A DNA stretch of 64,000 nt from an uncultured Hyphomicrobiales bacterium (GCA_964445695.1 CAYULF010000010.1:57821-121820), one strand, 5' to 3'. Shown: positions 4,113 through 51,271, counted from the first letter of the stretch. A program made the numbers and translations. The notes: generated from the sequence alone by a model not told the origin.

Positions 4113-6002
4113 TTGCCGACAGTCATTATGCAAAAACTCGTCAGCCCTTTTCTCGACCTGGAACGCGAAGACCAACGTCTCGCTCTCGAAGCAATCATCT
4201 TTGCTTCTGATGAACCCCTGTCTACCGCCGCGCTGTACCGGTTACTCGTTGAGCCCGACGCCGACGTGCGCGCAATCGAGGAAGAAGACGCGCTCGAAAA
4301 TATAGAACCCAACAGTCAGGTCATCGATCCGGAAACCGCTGCCGACGAGTCCACCGCCGAAGAATCGGACCAGGAATCAGGCGAAGAATCGGACGAAGAA
4401 TCAGTCGAAGAATCTGGTGAAGAATCGGACGCCGAATCAGACAATGAATCGGACGAAGAATCAGACGAAGAATCTGGTGAAGAAACGGACGATGAATCAG
4501 GCGAAGAACCGGCCGATGAAATGGACAGTGAAGCAGACGACGAGACAGATGGCGAATCAGATGATGAAGCGGACGACGAAGACGAGGACAGCGACGCGGA
4601 AAGCTCCGAGCCTGACGCTGCAAGCGAAGTAGAGCCAGAGGCTGACGCCACTCAGCAGGCAGACACCGACGCTGCTAAAAGCGAGGACAAAAAAGCCGTT
4701 CAGGCACGCCACATCGAAGGCGATCCGGCCGGCGTGCTGACAAAACTGCGCGAACAGCAGGATACCCTAAAAAAATTGCACCGTGAAAAACGGCGTGAAA
4801 TCCGCAGTCTGTTCGATGAACTGATCGAGGAAATCAACGCCGATCTGGACGAGACCGGACGGCCTTTCCACGTCGTGCGCATCGCAGGTGGCTACCAGTT
4901 CGCCACGCGCCCCGAACACGGTGAAATGATCGTGCGCCTGCAAGGCTCGCGTACCCGCCGTCGCCTCTCGCGCGCAGCGGTCGAATCGCTGGCAATCATT
5001 GCCTATCGCCAGCCGCTGTCCAAGTCCGATGTCGAGGCGATCCGCGGCGTCAACTCCGGCGAGGTCATCAAAAAGCTGATGGAAAAAGGGCTCGTCTCCA
5101 TCGTCGGTCGCTCCGACAGCGTCGGCAAACCGCTGCTTTATGGTACGACCCGCGAGTTCCTTAAAACCTTTGGTTTGCACGACCTGACCGACCTGCCGCG
5201 TCCGCGCGAGCTCAAGGAAATCCTGCGCGACAGCCAGGAAGAAATGAGCCAGTATCAAACGATCATCATCGATGAGGACGACAACATCGAAGTCATCGAA
5301 GAGCGCATTCAGTCGATCACCGGCGAGTCGCCGCTCGTTGAAGGCAAGTATATTTCTCAGCGCGACGGCGATTCCGATGACGATGAAGAGACGGACGACT
5401 CCGAAGAGGAAATCCGTGACGCCGATTCCGACGATGAAGATGCCGACCTTGATTCCGCGGACGGTGATGAAAATACCGACGCCGACGACGCCGACGACGC
5501 CGACGATGATGAATCAGATGACGACGACGACGATGATGACGACGATGACGACGATGACGACGATGATGAATCAGATGACGACGATGATGACGACGATGAC
5601 GACGATGATGACGACGATGACGACGATGATGAATCAGATGACGACGATGAATCAGATGACGATGACGACGATGATGATGACGAATCAGATGACGATGAGC
5701 AGTTTGACGACCTGGCGTCCGGTGATGAGTTTTACGCCGATGGGAGCGGCGACGGGGAAGATCTGAGCGACGAAGATCCCGACTACGAGCAATTCGACGA
5801 CGAGCCCGCGGATGAAAACGCGGAGGATCACAACAACAATACTGACGGCGATCGTGGACGCGACGCCGACAACCGCACGACTAACAAGAATTCGGAAACC
5901 GCCACCGAAGGTGCGGAATCAAGGAAGCCGAAGTTTGCCAGGCAGGGCGGCGAGCAGGACCAAAATGCGCCCGAAATCCGGTTTATGAAGCGCCGCGGCT
6001 GA
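4113..6002 (+). CDS. scpB: Segregation and condensation protein B carrying a ~180-aa poly-acidic insertion and a ~250-aa poly-Asp C-terminal tail (629 aa versus a typical ~200 aa)
   Basis: Conserved ScpB blocks LALEAIIFASDEPLS and HVVRIAGGYQFATRPEHGEMIVRL...LSRAAVESLAIIAYRQPLSKSDVEAIRGV are present. Between and after them lie ESDEESGEESDEE repeats and DDDDDDDDDDDDDDDDESDDDD runs, encoded by 15-21-bp DNA tandem repeats. Confidence 0.8.
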   Translation: MPTVIMQKLVSPFLDLEREDQRLALEAIIFASDEPLSTAALYRLLVEPDADVRAIEEEDALENIEPNSQVIDPETAADESTAEESDQESGEESDEESVEESGEESDAESDNESDEESDEESGEETDDESGEEPADEMDSEADDETDGESDDEADDEDEDSDAESSEPDAASEVEPEADATQQADTDAAKSEDKKAVQARHIEGDPAGVLTKLREQQDTLKKLHREKRREIRSLFDELIEEINADLDETGRPFHVVRIAGGYQFATRPEHGEMIVRLQGSRTRRRLSRAAVESLAIIAYRQPLSKSDVEAIRGVNSGEVIKKLMEKGLVSIVGRSDSVGKPLLYGTTREFLKTFGLHDLTDLPRPRELKEILRDSQEEMSQYQTIIIDEDDNIEVIEERIQSITGESPLVEGKYISQRDGDSDDDEETDDSEEEIRDADSDDEDADLDSADGDENTDADDADDADDDESDDDDDDDDDDDDDDDDDESDDDDDDDDDDDDDDDDDDDESDDDDESDDDDDDDDDESDDDEQFDDLASGDEFYADGSGDGEDLSDEDPDYEQFDDEPADENAEDHNNNTDGDRGRDADNRTTNKNSETATEGAESRKPKFARQGGEQDQNAPEIRFMKRRG

Positions 6003-15238: not shown

Positions 15239-15967
15239 TCACAATTCCATGTGGTTGTAGTCGCGCATGATTGTGCGCAGAAAATCGAATGGCTCTTCGG
15301 CGGAAACAATTCCCGTGCGATTCTTGATTTTCTGAGCGGCGCTGCTGACCAGGTGTTTGAGAGCTTTGTTGCGCGGTCCGCGGTGGTAGCGTTCCAGAAT
15401 GTCGCGAATGAGTGAGATGTCGCTTTCGCGCAGATACTCCACCTGCGGATAGTGGATTTTGTAGCCTTCGATCTGATTCATGAGAATAGTGTCGTCCAGA
15501 CTCAAACGGCGAGAAACCTGTACGACGGTTGTACCGGCGGCCAGATCGCCCAGGCGTTGACCGCGCCCGTTGATGAGCACAACGATCAGTGCAAAAATGT
15601 TGCAGGCGAACTTTTCAACGAAGCCGATTATCCAGCGGATCAGGTAGCTTTCAATGGTTGCCTGTGTGCCGTCGATGCGCACCACGCGGATTTTCATGAT
15701 GCGTTTGCCGATCGTCTGGCCGTCCATGAGCGATTCTGTCACCGCGTCGTACAGAACAACCGGAAGCGAGAGCACAAACTGGAGCGTAACGAGTGTCCAG
15801 TTGCCGTGGTCCAAACCAAATGCCGGCACGACGAAAAACAGCATGGCGAGGACGTAGGCCAATTGAATCATGAAATCGATGCCGTAAGCCATCATGCGCG
15901 TGCCGACGTTGGCGACTTCATAGTCGATGGTGACATTCTGTGCGGTGTCTATCGAGATTCTTTCCAT
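15239..15967 (-). CDS. RDD-family membrane protein
   Basis: N-terminal RMMAYGIDFMIQ, transmembrane segments and the RLGDLAAGTTVV motif typical of RDD proteins. Confidence 0.75.
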   Translation of the reverse strand: MERISIDTAQNVTIDYEVANVGTRMMAYGIDFMIQLAYVLAMLFFVVPAFGLDHGNWTLVTLQFVLSLPVVLYDAVTESLMDGQTIGKRIMKIRVVRIDGTQATIESYLIRWIIGFVEKFACNIFALIVVLINGRGQRLGDLAAGTTVVQVSRRLSLDDTILMNQIEGYKIHYPQVEYLRESDISLIRDILERYHRGPRNKALKHLVSSAAQKIKNRTGIVSAEEPFDFLRTIMRDYNHMEL

Positions 15968-16050
15968 ATCGTCAGCTTTTTGTGTAACTTCAGCGCCGAA
16001 GCAATTTACCGGAAAAATAGTTAATTCTCTGGTGACTAAGACAAAAACGC

Positions 16051-17040
16051 ATGCGTGAAATCACCTTTCTGAAACGCAACCGCGAGAAATGGGAGAAGTA
16101 CGAGGAAATTCTCGCGAACGCCCGCCACACGGATGCGGATACGCTGGCCCAGTTGTTCGTGGAGCTGACCGACGATCTGTCGTACGCGCGCACGTACTAC
16201 CCGAAAAGCAAAACGACGCAATATCTCAACCAGCTGGCGGCGGATGTGCACCGCAATATTTATCGCACGCGCAAGCAGAATCTGAGCACGATCAAAAGAT
16301 TCTGGGTCTACGACCTGCCCATGGCCTTGACGCGGCGCCGTCGCGAGTTATTCGCGTCGCTGGCTATCTACCTCTTTGCCTTTGCCGTCGGCATGTACTC
16401 CAGCGCGGTGGACGATTCATTTGTCCGCATGATCATGGGGGACGGGTATGTGAACCTGACGATTGAGAATATCGAGAAGGGCGACCCGCTGGCAATATAC
16501 AAGGACGAAGAGTTGACGGCGATGGCGACCGGCATCGGGTTCAACAACACCTTTTATGCCTTCATCACATTTGTTCACGGCTTGTATTGGGACCCGTACT
16601 GCGCCGAAATGATTTTCAGTACCGGCGTGATGGTCGGCAGTTTTCATCAGATGTTTATCAACCGGGACCTCGGTTTTGAGATGTTCCGGGTTGTGTATAT
16701 ACACGGTGCGCTGGAATTGAGCGCCATCGTGATCGCCGGCGGAGCGGGCATATCGCTGCTTTTCGGTTTTTTGTTTCCGGGGACGCACGGTCGCCTGCGT
16801 TCTTTTGGACAGGCCGTCCTAGACGGTTTGCGCATCATGCTGGGCCTGGTACCTGTTTTCGGGATGGCCGCACTGCTCGAAGGTTTTGTGACGCGACATA
16901 CGGAAATGCCGCTGCTCCTCAGTCTGATCATCATCGGCGGCTCGTTTGCGTTCATTATTTGGTACTTTATACTCTACCCAATGACCGTAGCCCGGTCGCA
17001 ACTGAAATTATCAGGAGACATCCCGAATGGACTATCGTGA
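16051..17040 (+). CDS. SpoIIM-like / DUF95 integral membrane protein
   Basis: N-terminal soluble region followed by about 5 TM helices (HGALELSAIVIAGGAG) characteristic of the stage II sporulation protein M family. Occupies the expected position in the RDD-MoxR neighbourhood. Confidence 0.65.
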   Translation: MREITFLKRNREKWEKYEEILANARHTDADTLAQLFVELTDDLSYARTYYPKSKTTQYLNQLAADVHRNIYRTRKQNLSTIKRFWVYDLPMALTRRRRELFASLAIYLFAFAVGMYSSAVDDSFVRMIMGDGYVNLTIENIEKGDPLAIYKDEELTAMATGIGFNNTFYAFITFVHGLYWDPYCAEMIFSTGVMVGSFHQMFINRDLGFEMFRVVYIHGALELSAIVIAGGAGISLLFGFLFPGTHGRLRSFGQAVLDGLRIMLGLVPVFGMAALLEGFVTRHTEMPLLLSLIIIGGSFAFIIWYFILYPMTVARSQLKLSGDIPNGLS

Positions 17041-18103
17041 GGACTACATTGACCTGCGACAACAGCGCGATTTCGGCCAGATGCTGTCGGCCACTTTCGG
17101 CATTGTGCGCAGGGAATTCGTCCCCCTCATCAAGGCTCTGCTCGTGTTGGCCGGTCCGTTTATTATTGCCGGCGCAATCATCAGCGTATTTGTTCAGATA
17201 GCCGCGATCGAAGCCGCACAGGCGATGCTGACCTTGCCGCAGGAAGATCCGATGATGATGTTCAAGGCAATGATGGGTGCGGCGGGCGCGGGCATCGGCC
17301 TGACCATGCTGGCATTCGCGATCGGAACGGCAACCAGTTTTTCGATTGCCTGGACCGGCTATGAATACGTGCGACTCTACATGGAGCGTGGCGAAGGCAA
17401 TATTTCAGTCGGCGACGTTGCGCGCGCTATCGGCAATGACTTCGGCGTTCTGCTGGGCACTTCGATCGTTGCGTACATTCTGTTGGTAATCGGTTTTATG
17501 TTCTGCATCCTGCCGGGAATCTACCTGTTGGTGCCGATGAGTTTTCTCATCATTGGTCGAATCATGCAGCGCGACAGCAGCATCGGCGATAGTTTCAGCC
17601 AGGCATTTGAGTTTACCAAGGAACGCTACTGGGTGTCGCTGTTCACGATTATTGTCGTGATTCTGATACAGATTGTAGTGAGTTATGGACTGTCACTGCC
17701 GCTGTCGAACTATACCGCGGAAATGACTTTTGTCGGCGTGGATGCATTTGACAAGGTGCATGCCCTGTTGTTGGCGCTGGTGCACAACTTTACAAATCTG
17801 TTGGGTGTTCTGCCCGCGATTGCAGGCGTTGTGATCTATGTGGGCGCGCGCGAATACCACCGCGCCGACTCGCTCTACGACGAAGTAGAGGGCATGGACA
17901 TGGAGCAGGACGACGATGGCTATGGTGCTTCAAGCGCCGATTCCTACGGCGGCTACGGCAACGACGAGTCCGGCAACAATGATTCCGACGACGATGCGCG
18001 TTGGCAGTCGCCGTCGTCCGGCGATGATTCATCCGACGATGACGCCGACCGCTGGAAAGGCCCCGACAGGTCGGGCAGCGACGATGATGACCGAAATTCC
18101 TGA
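17027..18103 (+). CDS. Multi-pass membrane protein, paralog A of a tandem triplet; acidic Asp/Gly/Ser-rich C-terminal tail
   Basis: Shares the motif ILPGIYLLVPMSF...ERYWVSLFTI with the next two ORFs. Tail is DDDGYGASSADSYGGYGNDESGNNDSDDD. Confidence 0.6.
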   Translation: MDYREDYIDLRQQRDFGQMLSATFGIVRREFVPLIKALLVLAGPFIIAGAIISVFVQIAAIEAAQAMLTLPQEDPMMMFKAMMGAAGAGIGLTMLAFAIGTATSFSIAWTGYEYVRLYMERGEGNISVGDVARAIGNDFGVLLGTSIVAYILLVIGFMFCILPGIYLLVPMSFLIIGRIMQRDSSIGDSFSQAFEFTKERYWVSLFTIIVVILIQIVVSYGLSLPLSNYTAEMTFVGVDAFDKVHALLLALVHNFTNLLGVLPAIAGVVIYVGAREYHRADSLYDEVEGMDMEQDDDGYGASSADSYGGYGNDESGNNDSDDDARWQSPSSGDDSSDDDADRWKGPDRSGSDDDDRNS

Positions 18104-18260
18104 CGATCGCATTTAACACGGGCCGATATGCTGCGGCAGTCGGCCTGTGATGTTTTATTATCCCTCCCCCCCAAATCCCGGTTGCCCTGTTCAGTATCCA
18201 GTCACGTTGTACTCCCGGAGACTTCAGACCGCATCATATACTTTGATCACGTGATCTCAA

Positions 18261-19373
18261 TTGCCGGAGACCATTGCTGCCATGCCAAACGACGAGCTGT
18301 TCAGTTCCGATTTCATTGAGTTCCGCCGGGTTCGCAACGTCGGCCAGATTCTTGGCGATACCTTTGGCTTTATGCGTCAGGAATACAAACTGATGTTAAG
18401 GTCATTCGCAAGGACTGCAGGACCGTGGCTGCTGGCGGCATTTGTTTTTGTTCTGGTCGGAGCAATTGTAAGCCCGGGCGGACTGGCTTCGGGAAGCACG
18501 GGGTCACACTACGATCCCGCTACCGATACCTACGTGGACAGCTCCGGCGGATCCGGTTCCTTTTTTGGTTTGCTGTTTATCCTGGGAATGATTTCCGGGG
18601 CGGTCGGAATGTACTTCCTGATCGCCACGAGCATCAATTACTGCGGCGTTTACGTGCGTATGGGCGCCGGCAATTTTGACGTGCAGGATATCCGGGAGGC
18701 GGTGAAAAAAGACGGCGGCCGCACTTTCCTGGGCGCTCTGATCAGTAACGTCGTAACGTCCATCGCATCCAACCTGTGTTTTTTCCCGGGTTTATACCTG
18801 AGCGTTCCGATGAACCTGATGATGGTCGAATACATTCTGGAGCGCGACACGACTATCAGCGGGGCATTCAGCGAAGGATTTACGCTCAGCAAAGATCGCT
18901 GGTGGGTGTCGTTTTTATCGTCCTTTACGATCAGCATCATACTGGTTGCGGCCGCTGTAGTTGTTGTGTTTTCTCCCTTCTTGGCGCCGGACGCCGCGGA
19001 TCCCCACGAGTCTATCAACATAGTGACTTTTGTGCAGGGCGTTCTCTTTCTGGCCATTCTGGTCGCGGCGGGAGCGATCTTGTTTTCCATGTACCAGATC
19101 TGCAACGTGTTCATCTACTACTCCAACCGCGAGTACCATTTCGGCGATTCGATAGCCGAAGAGATCGACAATATTGACGGCGCCGAGTTTGACGAATTCG
19201 ACGAAGAATTGCGGCGCGACGCGAACTATCGTTCACGGGAAGACGATGAACCCGCCGCCGATGATCCGATCCGTTGGAGCCGCGCGCCGCGCGACAATCC
19301 CGACGAGAAAAATTCCAGTGAAGACGGTCCGGGCGACACGGCCGGCGGCGACGATCGTGAATTCAGAGGATGA
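18261..19373 (+). CDS. Multi-pass membrane protein, paralog B of the tandem triplet; acidic C-terminal tail
   Basis: FFPGLYLSVPMNLMMVEYILERDTTISGAFSEGFTLSKDRWWVSFLS aligns with paralogs A and C. Confidence 0.6.
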   Translation: MPETIAAMPNDELFSSDFIEFRRVRNVGQILGDTFGFMRQEYKLMLRSFARTAGPWLLAAFVFVLVGAIVSPGGLASGSTGSHYDPATDTYVDSSGGSGSFFGLLFILGMISGAVGMYFLIATSINYCGVYVRMGAGNFDVQDIREAVKKDGGRTFLGALISNVVTSIASNLCFFPGLYLSVPMNLMMVEYILERDTTISGAFSEGFTLSKDRWWVSFLSSFTISIILVAAAVVVVFSPFLAPDAADPHESINIVTFVQGVLFLAILVAAGAILFSMYQICNVFIYYSNREYHFGDSIAEEIDNIDGAEFDEFDEELRRDANYRSREDDEPAADDPIRWSRAPRDNPDEKNSSEDGPGDTAGGDDREFRG

Positions 19374-20200
19374 AGATGTCGGATCCCACGGAATACGCCC
19401 TGCCTCGTTCCGCCTGGAAGATAGCCGCCGCCTCGTGGAGCACTGCACGGCGTGATGCGCGTGAGCTGACCATGCTCTCTCTGCGCGCGGCCGCGCCGGG
19501 ACTGTTGTCCGGTACCCTGGTTTGCACGGTCGTGCTGTGGATGGGGGGGCAATTTACCCAGACGGGGTGGGGGCCAACCTTGCTCCTTGCGGCCGGTCTG
19601 GCAATAATCTTTTGCGCCACTATGTTGGCGCGCGCCGCGGCAATCGAGTTTTATGCCGCGCGTCTTGCGCAGGCGCCCGGTGCGTATCAGTCCGAGGGAA
19701 TTGTGTCGTCAAGGCCGGCTGCCTGGCCGCGCCGTCTGTTGGCGACCGTTCCGGCCTGGCTGGCAGTGCAGATCGGATTTGAAATTTGTGTGCTGCCGGG
19801 TGTCTACCTCATGGTTCCCATGGCCGTGCTGCCGGCTGCCGTACTGCTGCGCGCTGATCAAACGCTGCAGCAGGCACTGAACGAAACATTTAAATTGATT
19901 GCCAGGCGCTGGTGGTTTGTCTTCAAGGCAGTTGCGCTCTTCGATCTTGTCGCGATCGGTGTTGGCTTTATTCTGGTCGTCCCGGGAATCTATCTCGGGC
20001 ACGGCCTGGGACTGATGCTGGACGACGGGAGGCTGATGCGAGCATTTTGCATCTTGTTGTTCACCGGCGCGGGCTTCAGCGTGCTTCAGGCAGCGATGGG
20101 GATCTTTACCGTCAATATCTATCGCGCACTTTTCCGGATTCGGGCGGAAGTAAAGGCGTCAGCCGCCGCCGAAACATCTGATGATGAATCAGAAAGATAA
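19370..20200 (+). CDS. Multi-pass membrane protein, paralog C of the tandem triplet
   Basis: VLPGVYLMVPMAVLPAAVLLRADQTLQQALNETFKLIARRWWFVFKAV aligns with A and B. Start overlaps the stop of B by 4 nt. Confidence 0.55.
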   Translation: MKMSDPTEYALPRSAWKIAAASWSTARRDARELTMLSLRAAAPGLLSGTLVCTVVLWMGGQFTQTGWGPTLLLAAGLAIIFCATMLARAAAIEFYAARLAQAPGAYQSEGIVSSRPAAWPRRLLATVPAWLAVQIGFEICVLPGVYLMVPMAVLPAAVLLRADQTLQQALNETFKLIARRWWFVFKAVALFDLVAIGVGFILVVPGIYLGHGLGLMLDDGRLMRAFCILLFTGAGFSVLQAAMGIFTVNIYRALFRIRAEVKASAAAETSDDESER

Positions 20201-21139
20201 ATGTTAACAAAAACGACATATCGCGGAATTCGGAGAACGGGGGAGTCGCTCCCGGAGGAAAAATGGTTAACCGGCGCTCGTCGATTGCTGTTTCTCTGGC
20301 TGTGCTGTTGTTTAAGTTGCGTCGTCACGCCGCTGACGGCGCAGGAGAACGAACAGGCGACCTACGAGTGGACGTCCAACTCCACCATATCCATTGATGA
20401 AGACGGCAACGTCATCTTCAAAGAGAAAGAGCCGGAAAAGACGGCCGGCGTCAAAGTTGAAAGCACCACATCGACAATCGACCTGCCGCAGGACAATCAG
20501 TCGATAGAAGCCCGCGGTATCGATCAACAAACCATTGATGCCCTGCGCGACAAACCCGAGTACCAATACAATGTCGTCAAGCCTGAAGAGCCGTCGCTCT
20601 GGGATGAATTATGGTACTGGCTGGTGCGCAACCTGTTTTCTCCGATCGACGATGAAGGGCAAGTTACGCCGTTTAAGTTGATCAGCTACGGCCTGATTCT
20701 TCTGGCGCTGGTTTTGCTGGTTCGCGTGCTGATGGGCGGCGCCTTCTTTGGTTTGCTGGGGCGGCGCGACAAGTCGACGGGGATTGATTACACGACAGGC
20801 GCCGAAGAAGACATCCACAGCATGAGTCTGGAAGATCTGTTAAGTGAAGCGCTGGCGCAGGAGAACTATCGATCCGCCGTGCGCTATCGCTTCCTGATGC
20901 TGCTGCGCGAACTGGCGCGGCAGAACAAAATTTCCTGGCGCCGCGAAAAGACCAATTCGCGTTACATGGCCGAGATTCAGGACCCCGAACTTAAACAGAT
21001 GTTCAGGAAGGCGGCCTGGTGGTTTGACCTGGCCTGGTACGGCGAATGGAGCCTCACGGCGGCCGACGAAGCGCAGATAGCCCAGGTGTTCAGAGATTGC
21101 ATGGCGCGCCTGGGCGTGCGGGAGGCGATGCAGAAATGA
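20201..21139 (+). CDS. DUF4129-domain protein (transglutaminase-associated membrane protein)
   Basis: TM segment plus the C-terminal block YRSAVRYRFLMLLRELARQNKISWRREKTNSRYMAEI...WWFDLAWYGEW typical of DUF4129. Confidence 0.7.
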   Translation: MLTKTTYRGIRRTGESLPEEKWLTGARRLLFLWLCCCLSCVVTPLTAQENEQATYEWTSNSTISIDEDGNVIFKEKEPEKTAGVKVESTTSTIDLPQDNQSIEARGIDQQTIDALRDKPEYQYNVVKPEEPSLWDELWYWLVRNLFSPIDDEGQVTPFKLISYGLILLALVLLVRVLMGGAFFGLLGRRDKSTGIDYTTGAEEDIHSMSLEDLLSEALAQENYRSAVRYRFLMLLRELARQNKISWRREKTNSRYMAEIQDPELKQMFRKAAWWFDLAWYGEWSLTAADEAQIAQVFRDCMARLGVREAMQK

Positions 21140-22560
21140 AGAAAATCTGGATCGTTCTTGTTATCGCCCTGATTGTCGTATTCCTCGTAGTGCAGAGCAG
21201 TGTACCGCAGGCGCCTGACTGGAGCCCAGACTTCCGGTCGTCCAGTACCAAACCGTACGGCGGCAAAATTCTGTACGACCTTCTGCCCGAGCTGATTCCC
21301 GGTGCACGTGTGTTTAAGTCGGACGTCACCGCTTTTGAAGATTCGCGCAATGCCGGCATGATGGAGGGGAAAACCTATTTTTCCGTTGGTTACAGTTTTG
21401 CTCCGGACGACTACAGCACCTACGAACTGTTAAACTTTGTGGAGGAGGGCAACACGGCTTTTATCGCTGCGGCGCAGATCGACGGGCTTATCTCCAAGCG
21501 CCTGGGATTCAGGGTCGGGATGCGACATCCCTACCAGGTCGCGTTTAAAGCCGGCGATTATTTTGAGACCGGCGCGGGCATTCCAGCCGCGGAGACCGAG
21601 GCTGCAAGTACGGAGGCTACGATTTCCGCCGCATCGGCTTCAGACGCGACGGCAAACGACTCTGCGATTGTCGATGCGCAGGTTCCCGACTCGGCGATTA
21701 ACAAAAAATCAGGGGAAAGCACCGACAGCAGCGAGATCGTGCAGCAGGAGAGGGATTCGCCCATGTCGGCGGCGGACTGGATTCTGAGTTATTCGACCGA
21801 CATCAACCTGTTAAACGAAGATCTGCGCCTGGATTCCGGCGTCTGGTACCAGCGTTTTGAAGGTTATCGCTGTTTTACGGAAATGGTAGGCACAAGCACC
21901 TGTACCGTCCTGGGACGCAATCAATTCGGCGAGGCCAATTTCATGCATTTCCGCTGGGGCGAGGGCGACTTTTACATCAGTACCGTGCCGTTTGCCTATT
22001 CGAATTTCAACATGTTGCAGGACGGTTGCGCTGAGTACGCGGCGCGTTCTTTGTCCTATTTGCCGAATCGCGATTTGTACTGGGACAACTACACCGGTAA
22101 AAACATTGGCGAGCTGGATTCCATGCGTCTGTTGCGACAGTCGCCGGCGTTAATGGCGGCCATCTGGACGGGGGCGGCGACGCTGCTGCTCTTTCTGGTG
22201 TTCAGTGTTAAACGCCGCCAGAGAATCATTCCGGTCATTACACCGCCGTCCAATGCCACGCTGGGATTTGTCGGCATGGTCGGCAATCTGTATTACCAGC
22301 GCGCTGACCACGTGGTGGCGGCGCACAAGAAAATTCGCTTCCTGCTGGAGTATATACGCCGGCGTTACTTTTTACGAACCAACGTGATCGATCACGAGTT
22401 TCGCGATGCGCTCGAAGCCAAATCAGGCGTGCCGCGCAGCGATATCGACGCGCTCTTTGACGCTATTGATGCGGTGCAAAAACAGCCCGACATCACAGCG
22501 GAAGAGCTGGCCGATATCTGTCGATTGATCGATGCGTTTTATTCCGACTGCAAAGTGTGA
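21136..22560 (+). CDS. DUF4350-domain protein (signal-anchored, with C-terminal TM)
   Basis: MKKIWIVLVIALIVVFLV leader, GGKILYDLLPEL motif, and C-terminal TM plus basic stretch. ATGA overlap with the DUF4129 gene. Confidence 0.7.
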   Translation: MKKIWIVLVIALIVVFLVVQSSVPQAPDWSPDFRSSSTKPYGGKILYDLLPELIPGARVFKSDVTAFEDSRNAGMMEGKTYFSVGYSFAPDDYSTYELLNFVEEGNTAFIAAAQIDGLISKRLGFRVGMRHPYQVAFKAGDYFETGAGIPAAETEAASTEATISAASASDATANDSAIVDAQVPDSAINKKSGESTDSSEIVQQERDSPMSAADWILSYSTDINLLNEDLRLDSGVWYQRFEGYRCFTEMVGTSTCTVLGRNQFGEANFMHFRWGEGDFYISTVPFAYSNFNMLQDGCAEYAARSLSYLPNRDLYWDNYTGKNIGELDSMRLLRQSPALMAAIWTGAATLLLFLVFSVKRRQRIIPVITPPSNATLGFVGMVGNLYYQRADHVVAAHKKIRFLLEYIRRRYFLRTNVIDHEFRDALEAKSGVPRSDIDALFDAIDAVQKQPDITAEELADICRLIDAFYSDCKV

Positions 22561-23633
22561 TGGAAAACGAACAGCAAGACGGTCGCACGGCGACCAACCC
22601 GGAGCAGGAACGTCCGGCCGATGCGGCCGCCACGCCTGCCCACGATGCGCCCGACGCGCCGGCGGTGAGCACGGCGCAACGAACGTCACTGGATGTACTG
22701 AGCGACAAACTGGAGAGCGTGCGCCGGGAAATCGCCAAGGTGATCGTCGGCCAGGCTTCGATGATCGACCAGTTGATAGCGGCAATGCTCGTGGACGGGC
22801 ACGTGCTGATTGAAGGCGTGCCGGGCGTGGCCAAAACGCTGGCGGCGCGCCTGCTGGCGCAGACGCTGGACGTCGATTTTGCGCGAATTCAGTTCACGCC
22901 CGACCTGATGCCTTCGGACGTCATCGGGACGAATGTGTTTAACCCGCGCGAGTCCCGTTTTGAATTCCACCGCGGTCCGATTTTTGCCAACGTCGTGCTG
23001 ATCGACGAGATCAACCGCGCTCCCGCCAAAACGCAGGCCGCGCTGTTCGAGGCGATGGAAGAACGCCAGGCGACCGTCGACGGAACGACCTACGCCTTTG
23101 CGCCGCCCTTCACCGTCCTGGCTACGCAGAACCCGGTGGAGCACGAAGGCACCTACCGTCTGCCCGAGGCGCAACTGGACCGTTTTATGTTCAAGATTGA
23201 AGTCGGTTACCCCGATCTGGCGGAAGAGACGCGCATTCTGACGGCCGGCCACGAACGCCGCGGACGGCCGCAGACCGCCGAAGTACGGCCCGTGCTGAGC
23301 GGCGCGGACCTGCTGGCGCTGCGCGAAACCGTGCATCAGGTGCACGTGGACGCCAAACTGATGGAATACGTTGCCAAACTGGTGCAGCAGACGCGCAGCT
23401 CGCCTTCGATTTTCCTGGGCGGCTCGCCGCGCGCTTCGCTCGCAATTCTGGCGGCCTCCAAGGCATTTGCCGTGATGAGCGCGCGCGACTTCGTGATTCC
23501 CGAGGACATCCAGCTGGCCGCTTTCCCGGTACTGCGCCATCGCCTCATCCTGACGCCGGAACGCGAAATGGAGGGCACGCGCCCGGACGACGTCATCAAG
23601 GAGCTGATCAAACGCGTCGAGGTGCCGCGCTAG
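22557..23633 (+). CDS. MoxR-family AAA+ ATPase
   Basis: IVGQASMIDQL, Walker A EGVPGVAKT, Walker B VLIDEINRA, and TQNPVE...GTYRLPEAQLDRF are MoxR signatures. Confidence 0.9.
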   Translation: MMENEQQDGRTATNPEQERPADAAATPAHDAPDAPAVSTAQRTSLDVLSDKLESVRREIAKVIVGQASMIDQLIAAMLVDGHVLIEGVPGVAKTLAARLLAQTLDVDFARIQFTPDLMPSDVIGTNVFNPRESRFEFHRGPIFANVVLIDEINRAPAKTQAALFEAMEERQATVDGTTYAFAPPFTVLATQNPVEHEGTYRLPEAQLDRFMFKIEVGYPDLAEETRILTAGHERRGRPQTAEVRPVLSGADLLALRETVHQVHVDAKLMEYVAKLVQQTRSSPSIFLGGSPRASLAILAASKAFAVMSARDFVIPEDIQLAAFPVLRHRLILTPEREMEGTRPDDVIKELIKRVEVPR

Positions 23634-24976
23634 TGGACAAGTTGAAAGAGTTCATGGGCGGCGTTTTCCTGCCGGCGCGTCTGTTGGTTGTGCTGATTGT
23701 CATCGTGGCGATGATGGTGGCCGGCTATCTGCTGCCCTTTCTCTACGAATTGGCCGTGCTGCTGGTCTGGGGCACGGCCGCGCTGACGCTGATCGATCTG
23801 CTGCTGCTCTACGGTGCGCGCGAGGGCATCCAGGCTACGCGGATTGTGGCTGAGCGCTTTTCCAACGGCGATATTAATCCCGTCAACGTCAGCGTTGAAA
23901 ACAACTACCGTTTTCCCGTGCGGGCCACGCTGATTGACGAACTGCCGGAGCAATTCCAGATTCGCGACAGCAAACACCACTTCTCACTTTCGACCGGCGC
24001 CATGCGCACCATTCGCTACGAACTGCGACCGACCAAACGCGGCGACTACGGCTTCGGCCGCTCGATGATCTACGTCACCTCGCCGATCGGCTTGGTGCAG
24101 CGCCGATATATTGGTGCGTCAGAACAGAACGTGGTGACCTATCCGTCCTTTCTGCAAATGCGGCGCTATGAGCTGCTGGCCATCTCGAACCGCCTCTCGG
24201 AGGTCGGCGTCAAAAAAGTGCGCCGTCTGGGACACAGCATGGAGTTCGACCAGATCCGCCAGTACGTGCCGGGCGACGACTACCGCACGATCAACTGGAA
24301 GGCCACGGCGCGCGCCACGGAACTGATGGTCAACCACTTTCAGGACGAGCGCTCGCAGCACGTTTATGCCGTGATCGACAAGGGGCGCACGATGAAAAGC
24401 CCGTTTCGCGGCATGACGCTGCTGGACTACGCCATCAACGCCTCGCTGGTGATCTCCAATATCGCCATGCTCAAATACGACAAGGCGGGTTTGCTGACCT
24501 TCAACGACGGGACGGATGCTTTTTTGAAGCCGGACCGCGGCGGCAAACACCTCAACCGCATCCTGGAGGTGCTCTACAACCAGACGACCACCTTCCGCGA
24601 GTCCAACTTTGAGTTGCTGTTCACAATGACACGCAGATCAATCCACCAACGGAGCCTGATCCTGCTGTTCACAAACTTTGATACGGTGTCCTCAATGCGC
24701 CGCAGCCTGGACAAACTGCGGGCCATCGCCCGCAATCACGTTCTGGTGGTCATTTTCTTCGACAACACCGAGCTGCTCGACGTACTTGAAGGCGAGACGG
24801 AAACAGTGGCGGAAGCCTACACCAAAATAATTGCGGAGCAGTTTGCGTTTGAAAAACGTGAAATTGTGGCGGAACTGGAGCGCCACGGCATTCACGCCGT
24901 TTTAAGCGCCCCGGAAAACCTGACGGTCGATACGATTAATTCCTATCTGCGGCTGAAGTCGCGGGGCATCATCTGA
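23633..24976 (+). CDS. DUF58-domain protein (vWA-like, the usual MoxR partner), with N-terminal TM helices
   Basis: DUF58 core GDDYRTINWKATAR and a downstream vWA-like region. GTG start overlaps the MoxR stop. Confidence 0.75.
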   Translation: MDKLKEFMGGVFLPARLLVVLIVIVAMMVAGYLLPFLYELAVLLVWGTAALTLIDLLLLYGAREGIQATRIVAERFSNGDINPVNVSVENNYRFPVRATLIDELPEQFQIRDSKHHFSLSTGAMRTIRYELRPTKRGDYGFGRSMIYVTSPIGLVQRRYIGASEQNVVTYPSFLQMRRYELLAISNRLSEVGVKKVRRLGHSMEFDQIRQYVPGDDYRTINWKATARATELMVNHFQDERSQHVYAVIDKGRTMKSPFRGMTLLDYAINASLVISNIAMLKYDKAGLLTFNDGTDAFLKPDRGGKHLNRILEVLYNQTTTFRESNFELLFTMTRRSIHQRSLILLFTNFDTVSSMRRSLDKLRAIARNHVLVVIFFDNTELLDVLEGETETVAEAYTKIIAEQFAFEKREIVAELERHGIHAVLSAPENLTVDTINSYLRLKSRGII

Positions 24977-25038
24977 GCCCAACTTTCAGCGGTGGAATTC
25001 GTAGGATGGAAATTGTGTTATACGCCTGTGCCAATGGC

Positions 25039-25071
25039 GCGCAGGGGCCGCGCAGGGGCCGCGCAGGGGCC
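25039..25071. repeat. 11-bp tandem repeat gcgcaggggcc, 3 copies
   Basis: Direct reading of the sequence. Confidence 0.8.
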
Positions 25072-25128: not shown

Positions 25129-25839
25129 ATGGAAGTCAGAGAGATGAGTTTTGCCGAGCGCATGACCGAGAAAGTGGAACTCGGCGCGGATCGCGCAGCG
25201 CTCGTCAAACAATCATACCTGATGTTGAGCCTGGCGGTGGTTGCCGCCATGTTCGGCGGATGGGTCGGCTCTACGGTGCCGTTTTTCATTAATCTGTTCA
25301 CGGGTTGGGGCGGCTGGATCATGGCCATGCTGCTCATCAACTTTTTACCGATTATGGCGCTGCGCACGGCGCACAATCCGACGACCGGTCTGCTCTCGCT
25401 GCTCGGCTACGGATTTGTGGCCGGCCTCGTGCTTGGACCGATGATCTACGTGGTGGCCTTTATTCTTGAACAGCCTGAATTGCTGTTCAGCGCAGGGGTG
25501 ATTACCGCGGCGGTCTTCGGCGCGGTCACATTCTACGTGTTTACCTCCGGCAAGAGTTACTCCGCGCCGAAGGGAATGATGGTAGGAATGTTCGTGGGAC
25601 TCACGGGCGCCGTGCTGGTAAACCTGATGTTGGGCTCCAGCCTGCTCGGTTTCCTGATCAGCATCGGCATCGGTATTTTCGGCGTTATCTCGCTGTTTTA
25701 CTCGACCTCGAACCTGCTGCACAACCGCGACATCACAAGCCCGATTACCGGCGCCGTGTTGCTGTTCAGCGGTGTGTTCATGATCTTTCAGTCCGTGCTG
25801 CGCATCCTGATGGCTTTTGCCGGCGGCAGCCGCAACTGA
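25129..25839 (+). CDS. Bax inhibitor-1 / YccA-family (TMBIM) membrane protein
   Basis: Seven-TM profile with BI-1 family motifs, including the FYSTSNLLHNRD-like loop and a C-terminal basic end. Confidence 0.75.
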   Translation: MEVREMSFAERMTEKVELGADRAALVKQSYLMLSLAVVAAMFGGWVGSTVPFFINLFTGWGGWIMAMLLINFLPIMALRTAHNPTTGLLSLLGYGFVAGLVLGPMIYVVAFILEQPELLFSAGVITAAVFGAVTFYVFTSGKSYSAPKGMMVGMFVGLTGAVLVNLMLGSSLLGFLISIGIGIFGVISLFYSTSNLLHNRDITSPITGAVLLFSGVFMIFQSVLRILMAFAGGSRN

Positions 25840-36678: not shown

Positions 36679-37434
36679 ATGGACCAGTTGCTGGATGCCG
36701 CACTCAGCGCAGTTAACATACCTTTTACGGTATTGTTTGTTCTGGTGCTGTTATATTGGATCACCGTCATTATTGGTCTGCTCGACATCGACTCGCTCGA
36801 TGTGGACGTGCACGCCGATGCGGACTTCGATTTTGACGCAGATCTGGACGTCGATGCCGATATCGACGTCGACGCGGACCTCCATCTGGACGCCGATACA
36901 CATGTTGATGTCGGCAACGCGGAAATCGTCGGCGCGCATGCCGACGGCGCGGTGACGGACATCGGCGTCGATCACGGCGGAATGTTAAACTCGCTGCTGC
37001 TCTTTGCCAACCTCGGTTATATCCCTTTCATGATTGTCTTTTCCTTTATGGTACTGTTCCTCTGGACGGGCGCCATATTGTTAAACTATTACTTTAACCC
37101 CGACCTGGGCCTCGGCATGGCTGCGCTGCTGTTTGTGCCGAACTTCGCCGTCAGTTTTACCGCGATGAAGTTAATAACCTGGCCCCTCAAAAAACTGTTT
37201 TATCACATGCGCCGCGAAGAGCGCGAGATCGAATCCGTTGTGGGCCGCATTTGCGTGCTCACGATGGACGCCAGCCCGGAGCGCCTTTCCCAGGCCACGG
37301 TGGCGCGTCGCGGCGTTCCGCATTTGTTAAACGTCCGCCCGGTTGGCGACGACACGATTCTGCGCGGCAGCAAGGCCGTGGTTGTATCCTACATTGAAGA
37401 TCAGAGCGTGTACCTCGTCCAACCCGTGGACTGA
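36679..37434 (+). CDS. yqiJ: YqiJ-family (DUF1449) membrane protein with C-terminal NfeD-like OB-fold and an acidic (D-x)n repeat
   Basis: TM1, then DVDVHADADFDFDADLDVDADIDVDADLHLDADTHVDV, then 2-3 TM helices, then a C-terminal OB-fold GRICVLT...LRGSKAVVVSYIEDQSVYLVQPV. Sits upstream of SPFH genes as in E. coli yqiJK. Confidence 0.65.
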   Translation: MDQLLDAALSAVNIPFTVLFVLVLLYWITVIIGLLDIDSLDVDVHADADFDFDADLDVDADIDVDADLHLDADTHVDVGNAEIVGAHADGAVTDIGVDHGGMLNSLLLFANLGYIPFMIVFSFMVLFLWTGAILLNYYFNPDLGLGMAALLFVPNFAVSFTAMKLITWPLKKLFYHMRREEREIESVVGRICVLTMDASPERLSQATVARRGVPHLLNVRPVGDDTILRGSKAVVVSYIEDQSVYLVQPVD

Positions 37435-50982: not shown

Positions 50983-51146
50983 ACCGGTCTTTCAGCCGAA
51001 TCCGACTCTGAAAATCTGTTCAAACCGCAGCCGGCATTTCTGAGCGCTTCGCCGCCATGGGATGTCGGCTTGCTTTTTGCTTTTGTTTGTCAACGAGAGA
51101 GAAACAACAAACAGAAGAGTTGGCCACAAACCGCACAACTTCCGAG

Positions 51147-51271
51147 CCCACAGTCAGTCCCCAGCCTCAGAGTGTTCAGCCCACAGTCAGTCTCCAGCCT
51201 CAGAGTCCTCAGCCGAAAACCAGTTTCCAGCCTCAAAGTCCTCAGTCGAAAACCTGTCCCAGGCCGTGAAG
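51147..51271. repeat. 33-bp imperfect tandem repeat, 3.8 copies (cccacagtcagtccccagcctcagagtgttcag and variants) within a ~1-kb gene-free region
   Basis: Direct reading of the sequence; the units diverge progressively. Confidence 0.75.

Follow-up and report, generated by a model that had tools for sequence, protein, structure and literature searches.

The 64-kb stretch of DNA analysed here (64,000 nucleotides from an uncultured Hyphomicrobiales bacterium, hereafter the window) contains at positions 15239-24976 a gene cluster of the RDD, SpoIIM, DUF4129, DUF4350, MoxR and DUF58 families, in which a polytopic membrane protein, termed C, is encoded by three tandem genes, C1, C2 and C3. The cluster is likely to represent a conserved envelope operon of the Bacteroidota-Rhodothermales-Ignavibacteria-Calditrichia, in which the C gene was triplicated in the ancestor of a small clade and the copies then specialised as subunits of a membrane complex. 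It is a lineage-specific variant of a known neighbourhood, shaped by ordinary tandem duplication, divergence and differential loss, and as such of modest importance. New are the acidic tails of C1 and C2, which are probably cytoplasmic, evolve under purifying selection and contain a conserved RW..P motif; the tail motifs and the CysZ/CTL fold predicted for C proteins are modestly useful by-products.

Copy number of the C gene in conserved clusters

C1 (17027-18103, plus strand, 358 aa) is a membrane protein with six transmembrane (TM) helices and a 75-aa Asp/Gly/Ser-rich tail containing two RW..P motifs, and is of the three copies the one nearest to the family consensus. C2 (18282-19373, plus strand) comprises 363 aa when read from ATG 18282, and C3 (19376-20200, plus strand, 274 aa), the most diverged paralog, has no long tail. 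In pairwise comparison C1 and C2 are 29% identical over their full length (E 1e-37), and C3 matches C1 with E 2e-13 and C2 with E 3e-12, aligning with both around a common PG(I/V/L)YLxVPM...W motif. A hidden Markov model (HMM) of the C family scores C1, C2 and C3 with 257, 226 and 165 bits, respectively, and finds no further member within the 64-kb window. Residues R14, P163, G164, Y166, W202 and Y271 are kept in all three copies. The cytoplasmic end motifs, G17 and F24 in the N-terminal helix and E276 behind the last TM helix, are shared by 69-81 of 83 aligned members of the family and also by C1 and C2. In C3 they are replaced by W, W and R, while the core motif PGxYLxVPM is retained together with W202. 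The pairwise E values, the family HMM and the end-to-end alignment thus bear out three tandem paralogous polytopic membrane proteins, as read in a preliminary description of the window.

That description had itself raised the objection that the three open reading frames (ORFs) might be one frameshifted gene. The C ORFs are adjacent, homologous and on the same strand, as pieces of one gene split by a frameshift or an assembly error might be, but in the family alignment every one of them covers the entire ~290-aa single-copy protein, with the HMM scores given above. In addition, all three genes are again present in L002 and L003, which are independent assemblies, and C1 and C2 have orthologs in two further species. 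The objection therefore fails, and the probability of such a split is practically negligible.

The number of C genes in orthologous clusters was determined by comparative synteny in 80 loci of species-representative genomes, each with flanks of 10 kb, covering several classes of Bacteroidota, Rhodothermales, Ignavibacteria and one metagenome-assembled genome (MAG) of the Calditrichia. The SpoIIM-like gene served as their anchor, which makes the sampling independent of the C genes, and the ORFs of the loci were annotated with HMMs built from the window proteins. HMM searches replaced word-indexed searches (C1 gave 3 proteins and a 24-sequence C profile 9, with low-complexity and hydrophobic words swamping the candidates). 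The canonical order, a divergent RDD gene on the minus strand followed by SpoIIM, C, DUF4129, DUF4350, MoxR and DUF58, is complete in 46 of the 80 loci, and most of the others deviate through contig truncation or through an RDD gene at the 3′ end. The gene order is thus as widely conserved as had been proposed, and the expectation of a single membrane gene in this slot holds as well, with one C gene in 73 of the 80 loci. Two C genes are present in the Calditrichia MAG (L038) and in a sister species of that of the window (L001 and L004, MAG 'bacterium Co_bin.359'). Three are found only in the window's own species, in the window and in contigs L002 and L003, so that three copies are not routine among the 80 loci.

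Only one locus lacks a C gene altogether. In this Bacteroidetes MAG (L080:10001-11756) the operon is otherwise complete and the SpoIIM-like gene directly overlaps DUF4129; in that genome the C subunit is either dispensable or encoded elsewhere. The RDD gene, which is upstream and divergent in most Bacteroidota and Rhodothermales loci, stands at the 3′ end and on the same strand in loci of Ignavibacteria and Calditrichia (L008, L009, L013, L019, L038, L040, L042, L043 and L045). This placement on the operon strand strengthens the functional link between RDD and the operon.

Age and origin of the three copies

Over 281 trimmed alignment columns C1 and C2 are 26% identical, C3 and C1 17%, and C3 and C2 19%, compared with an average of 28% between single-copy orthologs of different phyla. 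Since the identity between the copies is as low as that of cross-phylum orthologs, the duplications are not recent. A contig from the European Nucleotide Archive (L084, ~78% nucleotide identity) carries C1 and C2 and, in the slot of C3, the initial 226 residues of an ortholog that is 45% identical to C3 of the window (E 9e-60). By its flanking genes this contig is an outgroup to the window and L001: the SpoIIM-like protein of the window is 95% identical to that of L001 and 87% identical to that of L084. The presence of C3 in the outgroup indicates that three copies are ancestral for this small clade and that the sister species L001 lost C3; in L001 an 86-bp stretch separates C2 and DUF4129 where C3 would lie.

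Neighbour-joining with simple corrected distances and 100 bootstrap replicates groups C1, C2 and C3 in 91/100 replicates when L084 is included, with C2 and C3 together in 73/100 and every orthologous group in 100/100. Without L084 the grouping of the three copies is recovered in 33/100 and the relations among the paralogs are not resolved; the L084 sequences broke the long branches of the tree. The question of recent versus ancient duplication is thereby answered in favour of old copies, arranged as C1|(C2,C3). We conclude that they derive from two in-situ tandem duplications in the clade ancestor, C1|(C2,C3) and then C2|C3, followed by strong divergence and, later, by deletion of C3 in the sister species.

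Two other histories have to be weighed against this duplication in situ. The extra copies could have arrived by horizontal transfer and been inserted beside a resident gene, a history consistent with the low mutual identity of the paralogs (17-26%, against a maximum of 27% to orthologs in other phyla), with their weak grouping before L084 was added, and with the best outside match of both C2 and C3, found in copy 2 of the Calditrichia MAG. However, with L084 the three copies group in 91/100 replicates, and the Calditrichia copies join them in only 32/100. The GC content at third codon positions of C3 (0.669) lies within the range of its neighbouring membrane genes in the operon (0.66-0.71). 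When 1.84 billion representatives were searched exhaustively with HMMER, C3 itself was followed by nothing stronger than E 8e-9, at 21% identity, so that no donor lineage is visible. The insertions would also have had to hit exactly one slot while keeping orientation and translational coupling, and transfer is regarded as very unlikely.

Alternatively, the duplication could be ancient and common to the Calditrichia, with at least two C paralogs in a deep ancestor and a return to one copy in most lineages. The two tandem copies of the Calditrichia MAG share only 27% identity and are placed apart in the tree, and in hhalign comparisons its copy 2 outscores copy 1 against the C1, C2 and C3 profiles, as such a history would predict. 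On the other hand, these copies score 335 and 325 against the single-copy profile and only 46-138 against C1-C3, support for a group of C1-C3 with the second Calditrichia copy is only 32/100, and dozens of independent losses would be needed across the 73 single-copy lineages. A deep common origin is accordingly considered highly improbable, and duplication within the clade is retained as the explanation.

All three C copies are under purifying selection, with constraint falling in the order C1 > C2 > C3. Between the window and L001 the ratio of nonsynonymous to synonymous substitution rates (dN/dS) is 0.18 for C1 and 0.17 for C2, in comparison with 0.056 for MoxR, 0.037 for DUF58 and 0.32 for DUF4129. 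The C1 and C2 tails, with ratios of 0.16 and 0.28, are under purifying selection as well. For C3, compared between the window and L084, the proportions of nonsynonymous and synonymous differences (pN and pS) are 0.345 and 0.666, which corresponds to a dN/dS of ~0.28 with dS near saturation. Amino acid identities between the window and L084 are 87% for the SpoIIM-like protein, 83% for RDD, 74% for C1, 56% for C2 and 45% for C3.

These rates bear on whether C3 is a decaying relic, an incipient pseudogene with no function of its own, beside which only C1 and C2, or C1, matter. C3 is absent from the sister species, evolves fastest in the cluster (45% against 87% for the SpoIIM-like protein) and has lost G17, F24, E276 and the C-terminal tail. 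Nevertheless, its frame is intact in two species with dS > 1 between them, its pN lies below its pS, the core motif and W202 are still in place, its predicted structure is a confident model of the same CysZ-like fold as that of C1, and it is tightly spaced from both neighbours. A relic is therefore unlikely, and C3 is better regarded as a third copy under constraint, less so than C1 and C2.

A separate observation concerns positions 17150-17750, the core of C1. In this recombination block L001 and L084 are 87-93% identical and the window is 72-81% identical to either, whereas outside it the window and L001 are 88-96% identical with L084 as outgroup at ~80%. Most simply, L001 acquired an L084-like allele in the core of its C1 gene in place of its own, in which case the divergence of C1 between the window and L001 is inflated.

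Fold, tails and proposed role of the C proteins

None of C1, C2 and C3 has a Pfam match above cut-off. Among the 24 members of the C-family profile, 11 match Pfam GPDPase_memb (PF10110; best E 1.7e-10) and eight match UPF0259/YciC (PF06790; best E 6.4e-8) at E<=0.01. Below the cut-offs, C2 matches DUF4013 with 21.7 bits (cut-off 26.9), and C3 matches GPDPase_memb with 14.2 bits (cut-off 29.6) and the YciC NCBIfam model with 12.8 bits; C1 matches none of GPDPase_memb, UPF0259 and DUF4013 in the Pfam scan. By these profile matches, which reach the best E value in orthologs from other phyla, the C family is a distant branch of the GPDPase_memb/UPF0259/DUF4013 group, a relationship that we regard as real but distant. 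The C proteins have no fused phosphodiesterase domain, and these Pfam families are themselves uncharacterised.

AlphaFold2 (AF2) models, calculated with alignments of 57-62 sequences, have a predicted local distance difference test score (pLDDT) of 93 and a predicted TM-score (pTM) of 0.89 for the C1 core, and values of 89.6 and 0.86 for C3. The C proteins are six-helix membrane proteins for which the prediction, of high confidence, is a fold matching that of the prokaryotic sulfate permease CysZ (PDB 3tx3/6d9z) and the eukaryotic CTL1/PNS1 family (CTL1/SLC44A1 and PNS1), a resemblance at the level of the fold only, with sequence identities of 6-11%. EI24/CysZ (PF07264) has no significant match, with one of the 24 C-family members at E 0.0099, and neither a sequence profile search of PDB chains with the C family nor Foldseek returned anything significant. 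CysZ has been described as a fold neighbour of PNS1 and CTL1, in a 2026 paper that also questions the transport role of the CTLs (PMC13160678). In contrast to the C genes, those for CysZ lie outside MoxR operons.

Hydropathy and the models agree on six membrane helices in the C proteins, with the invariant Pro-Gly at the turn of the hairpin formed by the third and fourth helices. Among the 83 family members the mean number of Lys and Arg residues is 6.8 in the N-terminus, 3.1 in loop 2, 2.8 in loop 3 and 4.0 in the C-terminus, against 0.4, 0 and 0.8 in the alternate loops. By the positive-inside rule both termini, including the C-terminal tail, and two of the loops are then cytoplasmic, and this family-wide count, the topology check that had been suggested, would place the C1 and C2 tails in the cytoplasm.

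The long tails of two of the copies, noted in the preliminary description as cytoplasmic and Asp/Gly/Ser-rich, are real, although the composition fits C1 only; the C2 tail is rich in Asp, Glu, Arg and Pro. The C1 tail has 75 residues and a net charge of -21, the acidic C2 tail 73 residues and a net charge of -16; C3 has only 18 residues past its last helix. Within otherwise variable tails the motifs DDADRWKGP and RWQSP of C1 and DDPxRWSRAPR of C2 are conserved in three species, and in Longibacter the acidic tail of the single-copy ortholog (81 aa) contains a similar PDRWRRSD. In most single-copy orthologs from Bacteroidota the C-terminus is short and acidic, of the form '...(P)EE(E/Q)Y'. Such acidic, Tyr-terminated ends (...RPEEY, ...DDEGEY, ...EEQY and ...DEETY) are found in L026, L031, L035, L041, L044, L058, L068, L081 and many other loci and might form a docking motif; they are absent from C1-C3, and the long tails of C1 and C2 carry RW..P instead.

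The best-supported reading of the operon, in line with a published prediction for related neighbourhoods (PMC5898192), is that it encodes a multi-subunit inner-membrane complex that would be controlled from the cytoplasm by MoxR and DUF58. The C, SpoIIM-like and RDD proteins are polytopic; the DUF4129 and DUF4350 proteins have two hydrophobic segments each and parts on both the cytoplasmic and the extracytoplasmic side; in MoxR the hydropathy profile shows no membrane segment. The N-terminal TM hairpin of DUF58 implies that its vWA-like domain should be cytoplasmic, beside MoxR. The C protein would in this complex be a membrane-embedded subunit or client with a CysZ fold, and MoxR and the membrane-anchored DUF58 would assemble or remodel the complex from the cytoplasmic side. 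After the duplications the copies may have specialised: C1 and C2 would have kept the cytoplasmic N- and C-terminal motifs and the long acidic tails with a docking-type RW..P motif, and C3 would have lost these contacts to become a dispensable accessory or variant subunit. The three proteins may act as alternative subunits or, by analogy only, as a hetero-oligomer.

Several points weigh against this reading of the triplicated operon. The locus without a C gene (L080) implies that C is not indispensable to the system. C1, C2 and C3 are all long branches, and their 91% support may be inflated by long-branch attraction. The two AF2 models have most of their alignment in common and are not independent. 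CysZ has been reported as oligomeric, but CTL1 and PNS1 as monomers (PMC13160678). A physical link between C and MoxR or DUF58 is hypothetical, and the degenerate metal-ion-dependent adhesion site (MIDAS) of DUF58 removes the most obvious route for binding of an acidic tail. The single-copy orthologs of Longibacter and of a Rubricoccaceae MAG are also long-tailed, so that the tails are no consequence of the triplication. Finally, acidic low-complexity inserts occur in unrelated proteins of the genome, such as the ScpB-like protein at 4113-6002, so that the acidity of the tails may partly be a genome-wide habit.

Going one step further, the C proteins, as channel or scaffold subunits of the CysZ type, could themselves be what MoxR-DUF58 acts on, engaged as its clients through their acidic cytoplasmic tails (RW..P here, '...EEY' in most Bacteroidota), with a homo-oligomer turned into a C1/C2(/C3) hetero-oligomer in this lineage. 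We consider this extension distinctly unlikely; were it true, the lineage would offer a natural dissection of subunit functions and the first named client for a widespread MoxR subfamily. The seven-gene MoxR/DUF58 operon is found in very many Bacteroidota and their relatives, with a counterpart in mycobacteria. The C subunit is its evolutionarily flexible part, with a copy number of 0-3 and the fastest evolution, while MoxR and DUF58 are nearly frozen. The predicted CysZ/CTL fold suggests a concrete hypothesis, permeation of small anions or small molecules or a scaffold of that fold, and the tail motifs (RW..P here and EEY elsewhere) are candidate interaction handles.

The acidic inserts elsewhere in the window suggest a genome-wide tendency to acidic disordered segments. 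The ORF at 4113-6002 (plus strand, 629 aa), putatively ScpB-like by its appearance, contains two very large acidic low-complexity inserts, made up of (E-E-S-D/G) repeats and of a ~70-residue run of almost pure Asp with interspersed Glu-Ser. The ORF at 36679-37434 (plus strand) contains an alternating Asp repeat (DIDSLDVDVHADADFDFDADLDVDADIDVD).

Gene layout and related systems

The ORF list and its translations place nine ORFs in 15239-24976, where they had been described. The RDD-family membrane protein (15239-15967, minus strand, 242 aa; Pfam RDD 67.7 bits) has three hydrophobic segments and a C-terminal soluble part, and its gene is divergent from the rest of the operon in the window. The SpoIIM-like membrane protein (16051-17040, plus strand, 329 aa; Pfam SpoIIM 82.8 bits), the synteny anchor, is encoded by the first gene of the operon. 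It has an N-terminal DUF8413 region, and its homologs, which are ~50% identical between phyla, all carry PF28475 and PF01944 in precomputed annotation. Downstream of the C genes lies the gene of the DUF4129 protein (20201-21139, plus strand, 312 aa), which matches its Pfam family with 28.8 bits against a cut-off of 24.8. By hydropathy the protein consists of an N-terminal signal or TM segment, a second hydrophobic segment and the C-terminal DUF4129 domain, and the position of its gene is conserved across the compared loci.

The DUF4350-like protein (21136-22560, plus strand, 474 aa) scores 30.0 bits against Pfam DUF4350, slightly below the 30.4 cut-off, and its orthology by position extends to 76 loci. 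It has an N-terminal TM segment, a large extracytoplasmic domain with a low-complexity insert, a further TM segment and a C-terminal soluble domain. The Pfam match spans residues 35-304 for a 181-position profile; this excess over the profile corresponds to an insert of ~90 aa, which is rich in Ala, Ser, Thr and Asp in the translation. The MoxR-type AAA+ ATPase (22557-23633, plus strand, 358 aa) matches AAA_3 with 212 bits and AAA_lid_2 with 79.7 bits, and its Walker motifs are legible as GVPGVAKT and VLIDEINR. The DUF58 protein (23633-24976, plus strand, 447 aa; Pfam DUF58 76.5 bits) consists by hydropathy of an N-terminal TM hairpin followed by a vWA-like domain. Its MIDAS position reads D-K-G-R-T in the window and D-x-(G/S)-R-(V/T) in the orthologs, not the canonical DxSxS; binding of the acidic tails to the vWA metal site was dropped as an idea on account of this degeneracy across orthologs. 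The NCBIfam scan added nothing specific for the operon genes, and scans of the window with Rfam and for tRNA genes were negative.

Tight junctions largely support the earlier claim of one long operon. The SpoIIM-like and C1 genes overlap by 14 nt, the C3 stop codon abuts the DUF4129 start (TAAATG), DUF4129 and DUF4350 share an ATGA overlap, and the overlaps of DUF4350 with MoxR and of MoxR with DUF58 amount to 1-4 nt (1 nt at the MoxR stop), with MoxR probably starting at ATG 22560. The start-stop overlaps claimed for these last three junctions are thus present. C2 and C3, which had been listed as a fourth overlapping pair, are likely separated by 2 nt, as the most likely start of C3 is ATG 19376, in agreement with the N-terminus of the L084 ortholog; starting at the alternative ATG 19370, C3 would form an ATGA overlap. 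For C2 the most likely start is ATG 18282 and not TTG 18261, given that this ATG and its upstream GGAG are conserved in three species, and gene callers pick ATG 18282 as well.

The sole exception to the tight junctions is the C1-C2 spacer of ~178 nt, where a conserved hairpin permits internal regulation. This stem-loop (18117-18149, plus strand), just 3′ of the C1 stop codon, was identified by folding and a three-species alignment, in which both stem arms are invariant and the loop is variable. It is followed on its 3′ side by a conserved C-rich tract, and a U-rich tract is present in the window and L001 only. The z-score of the 101-nt stretch that contains the stem-loop is only -1.7, and the element may possibly serve as an attenuator or in RNA stability. 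A scan of the operon for sigma-70 promoters and terminators, blind to Bacteroidota-type promoters, remained at background (6 against 5.4 expected, and 15 against 11.7).

As stated in the preliminary description, the neighbourhood is functionally uncharacterised; the literature searched assigns no function to it (PMC5898192, PMC8191103). The window contains all seven families of the RDD/SpoIIM/C/DUF4129/DUF4350/MoxR/DUF58 neighbourhood, contiguous and in canonical order and orientation, and differs by its three C genes instead of one and by the extension of the C1 and C2 tails to ~75 aa. In the archaeal arCOG01314 neighbourhood (Makarova et al. 2015, PMC5898192) MoxR and a DUF58/vWA partner are likewise accompanied by a membrane-anchored DUF4350 protein, with an architecture as in the window. 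The neighbourhood of DUF4350, MoxR and vWA genes has been predicted to encode a secretion or membrane-remodelling complex, and SpoIIM homologs adjoin genes for vWA proteins and COG0714 ATPases (PMC5898192). The mycobacterial counterpart Rv3689-Rv3695 is co-regulated, and in M. chelonae the RDD, SpoIIM, DUF58, MoxR and DUF4350 genes occur together and are co-regulated (PMC8191103). The mycobacterial SpoIIM-like and RDD proteins were co-purified with a divisome protein (PMC8093794), which by analogy may hint weakly at envelope or division biology.

Four known systems were considered and set aside. The Bat operon of Bacteroidota, an envelope-associated stress operon, starts with MoxR and DUF58 (PMC11834572), the pair that ends the operon of the window. 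It contains the vWA proteins BatA and BatB and TPR proteins and lacks RDD, SpoIIM-like, C, DUF4129 and DUF4350 genes, while a Pfam scan finds no further vWA, BatA/B or TPR gene in the cluster. A MoxR-vWA-beta-propeller ternary system was rejected because there is no propeller gene and the bpMoxR match of the ATPase is secondary (44 bits against 212 for AAA_3). PADLOC shows no membership in a defence system, with weak generic ATPase matches only. A sporulation locus was discarded since, next to the SpoIIM domain, no operon gene matches SpoIID or SpoIIP in Pfam. SpoIIM homologs are widespread in non-sporulating lineages (PMC5898192), and the SpoIIM-like protein is a domain relative and not a sporulation protein.

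Downstream of DUF58, after a spacer of 152 bp, lies a gene of the Bax1-I family (25129-25839). The spacer contains at 25038-25071 a perfect 11-bp tandem repeat (CGCGCAGGGGC, three copies), and a 33-bp tandem repeat of ~3 copies is present at 51145-51262.

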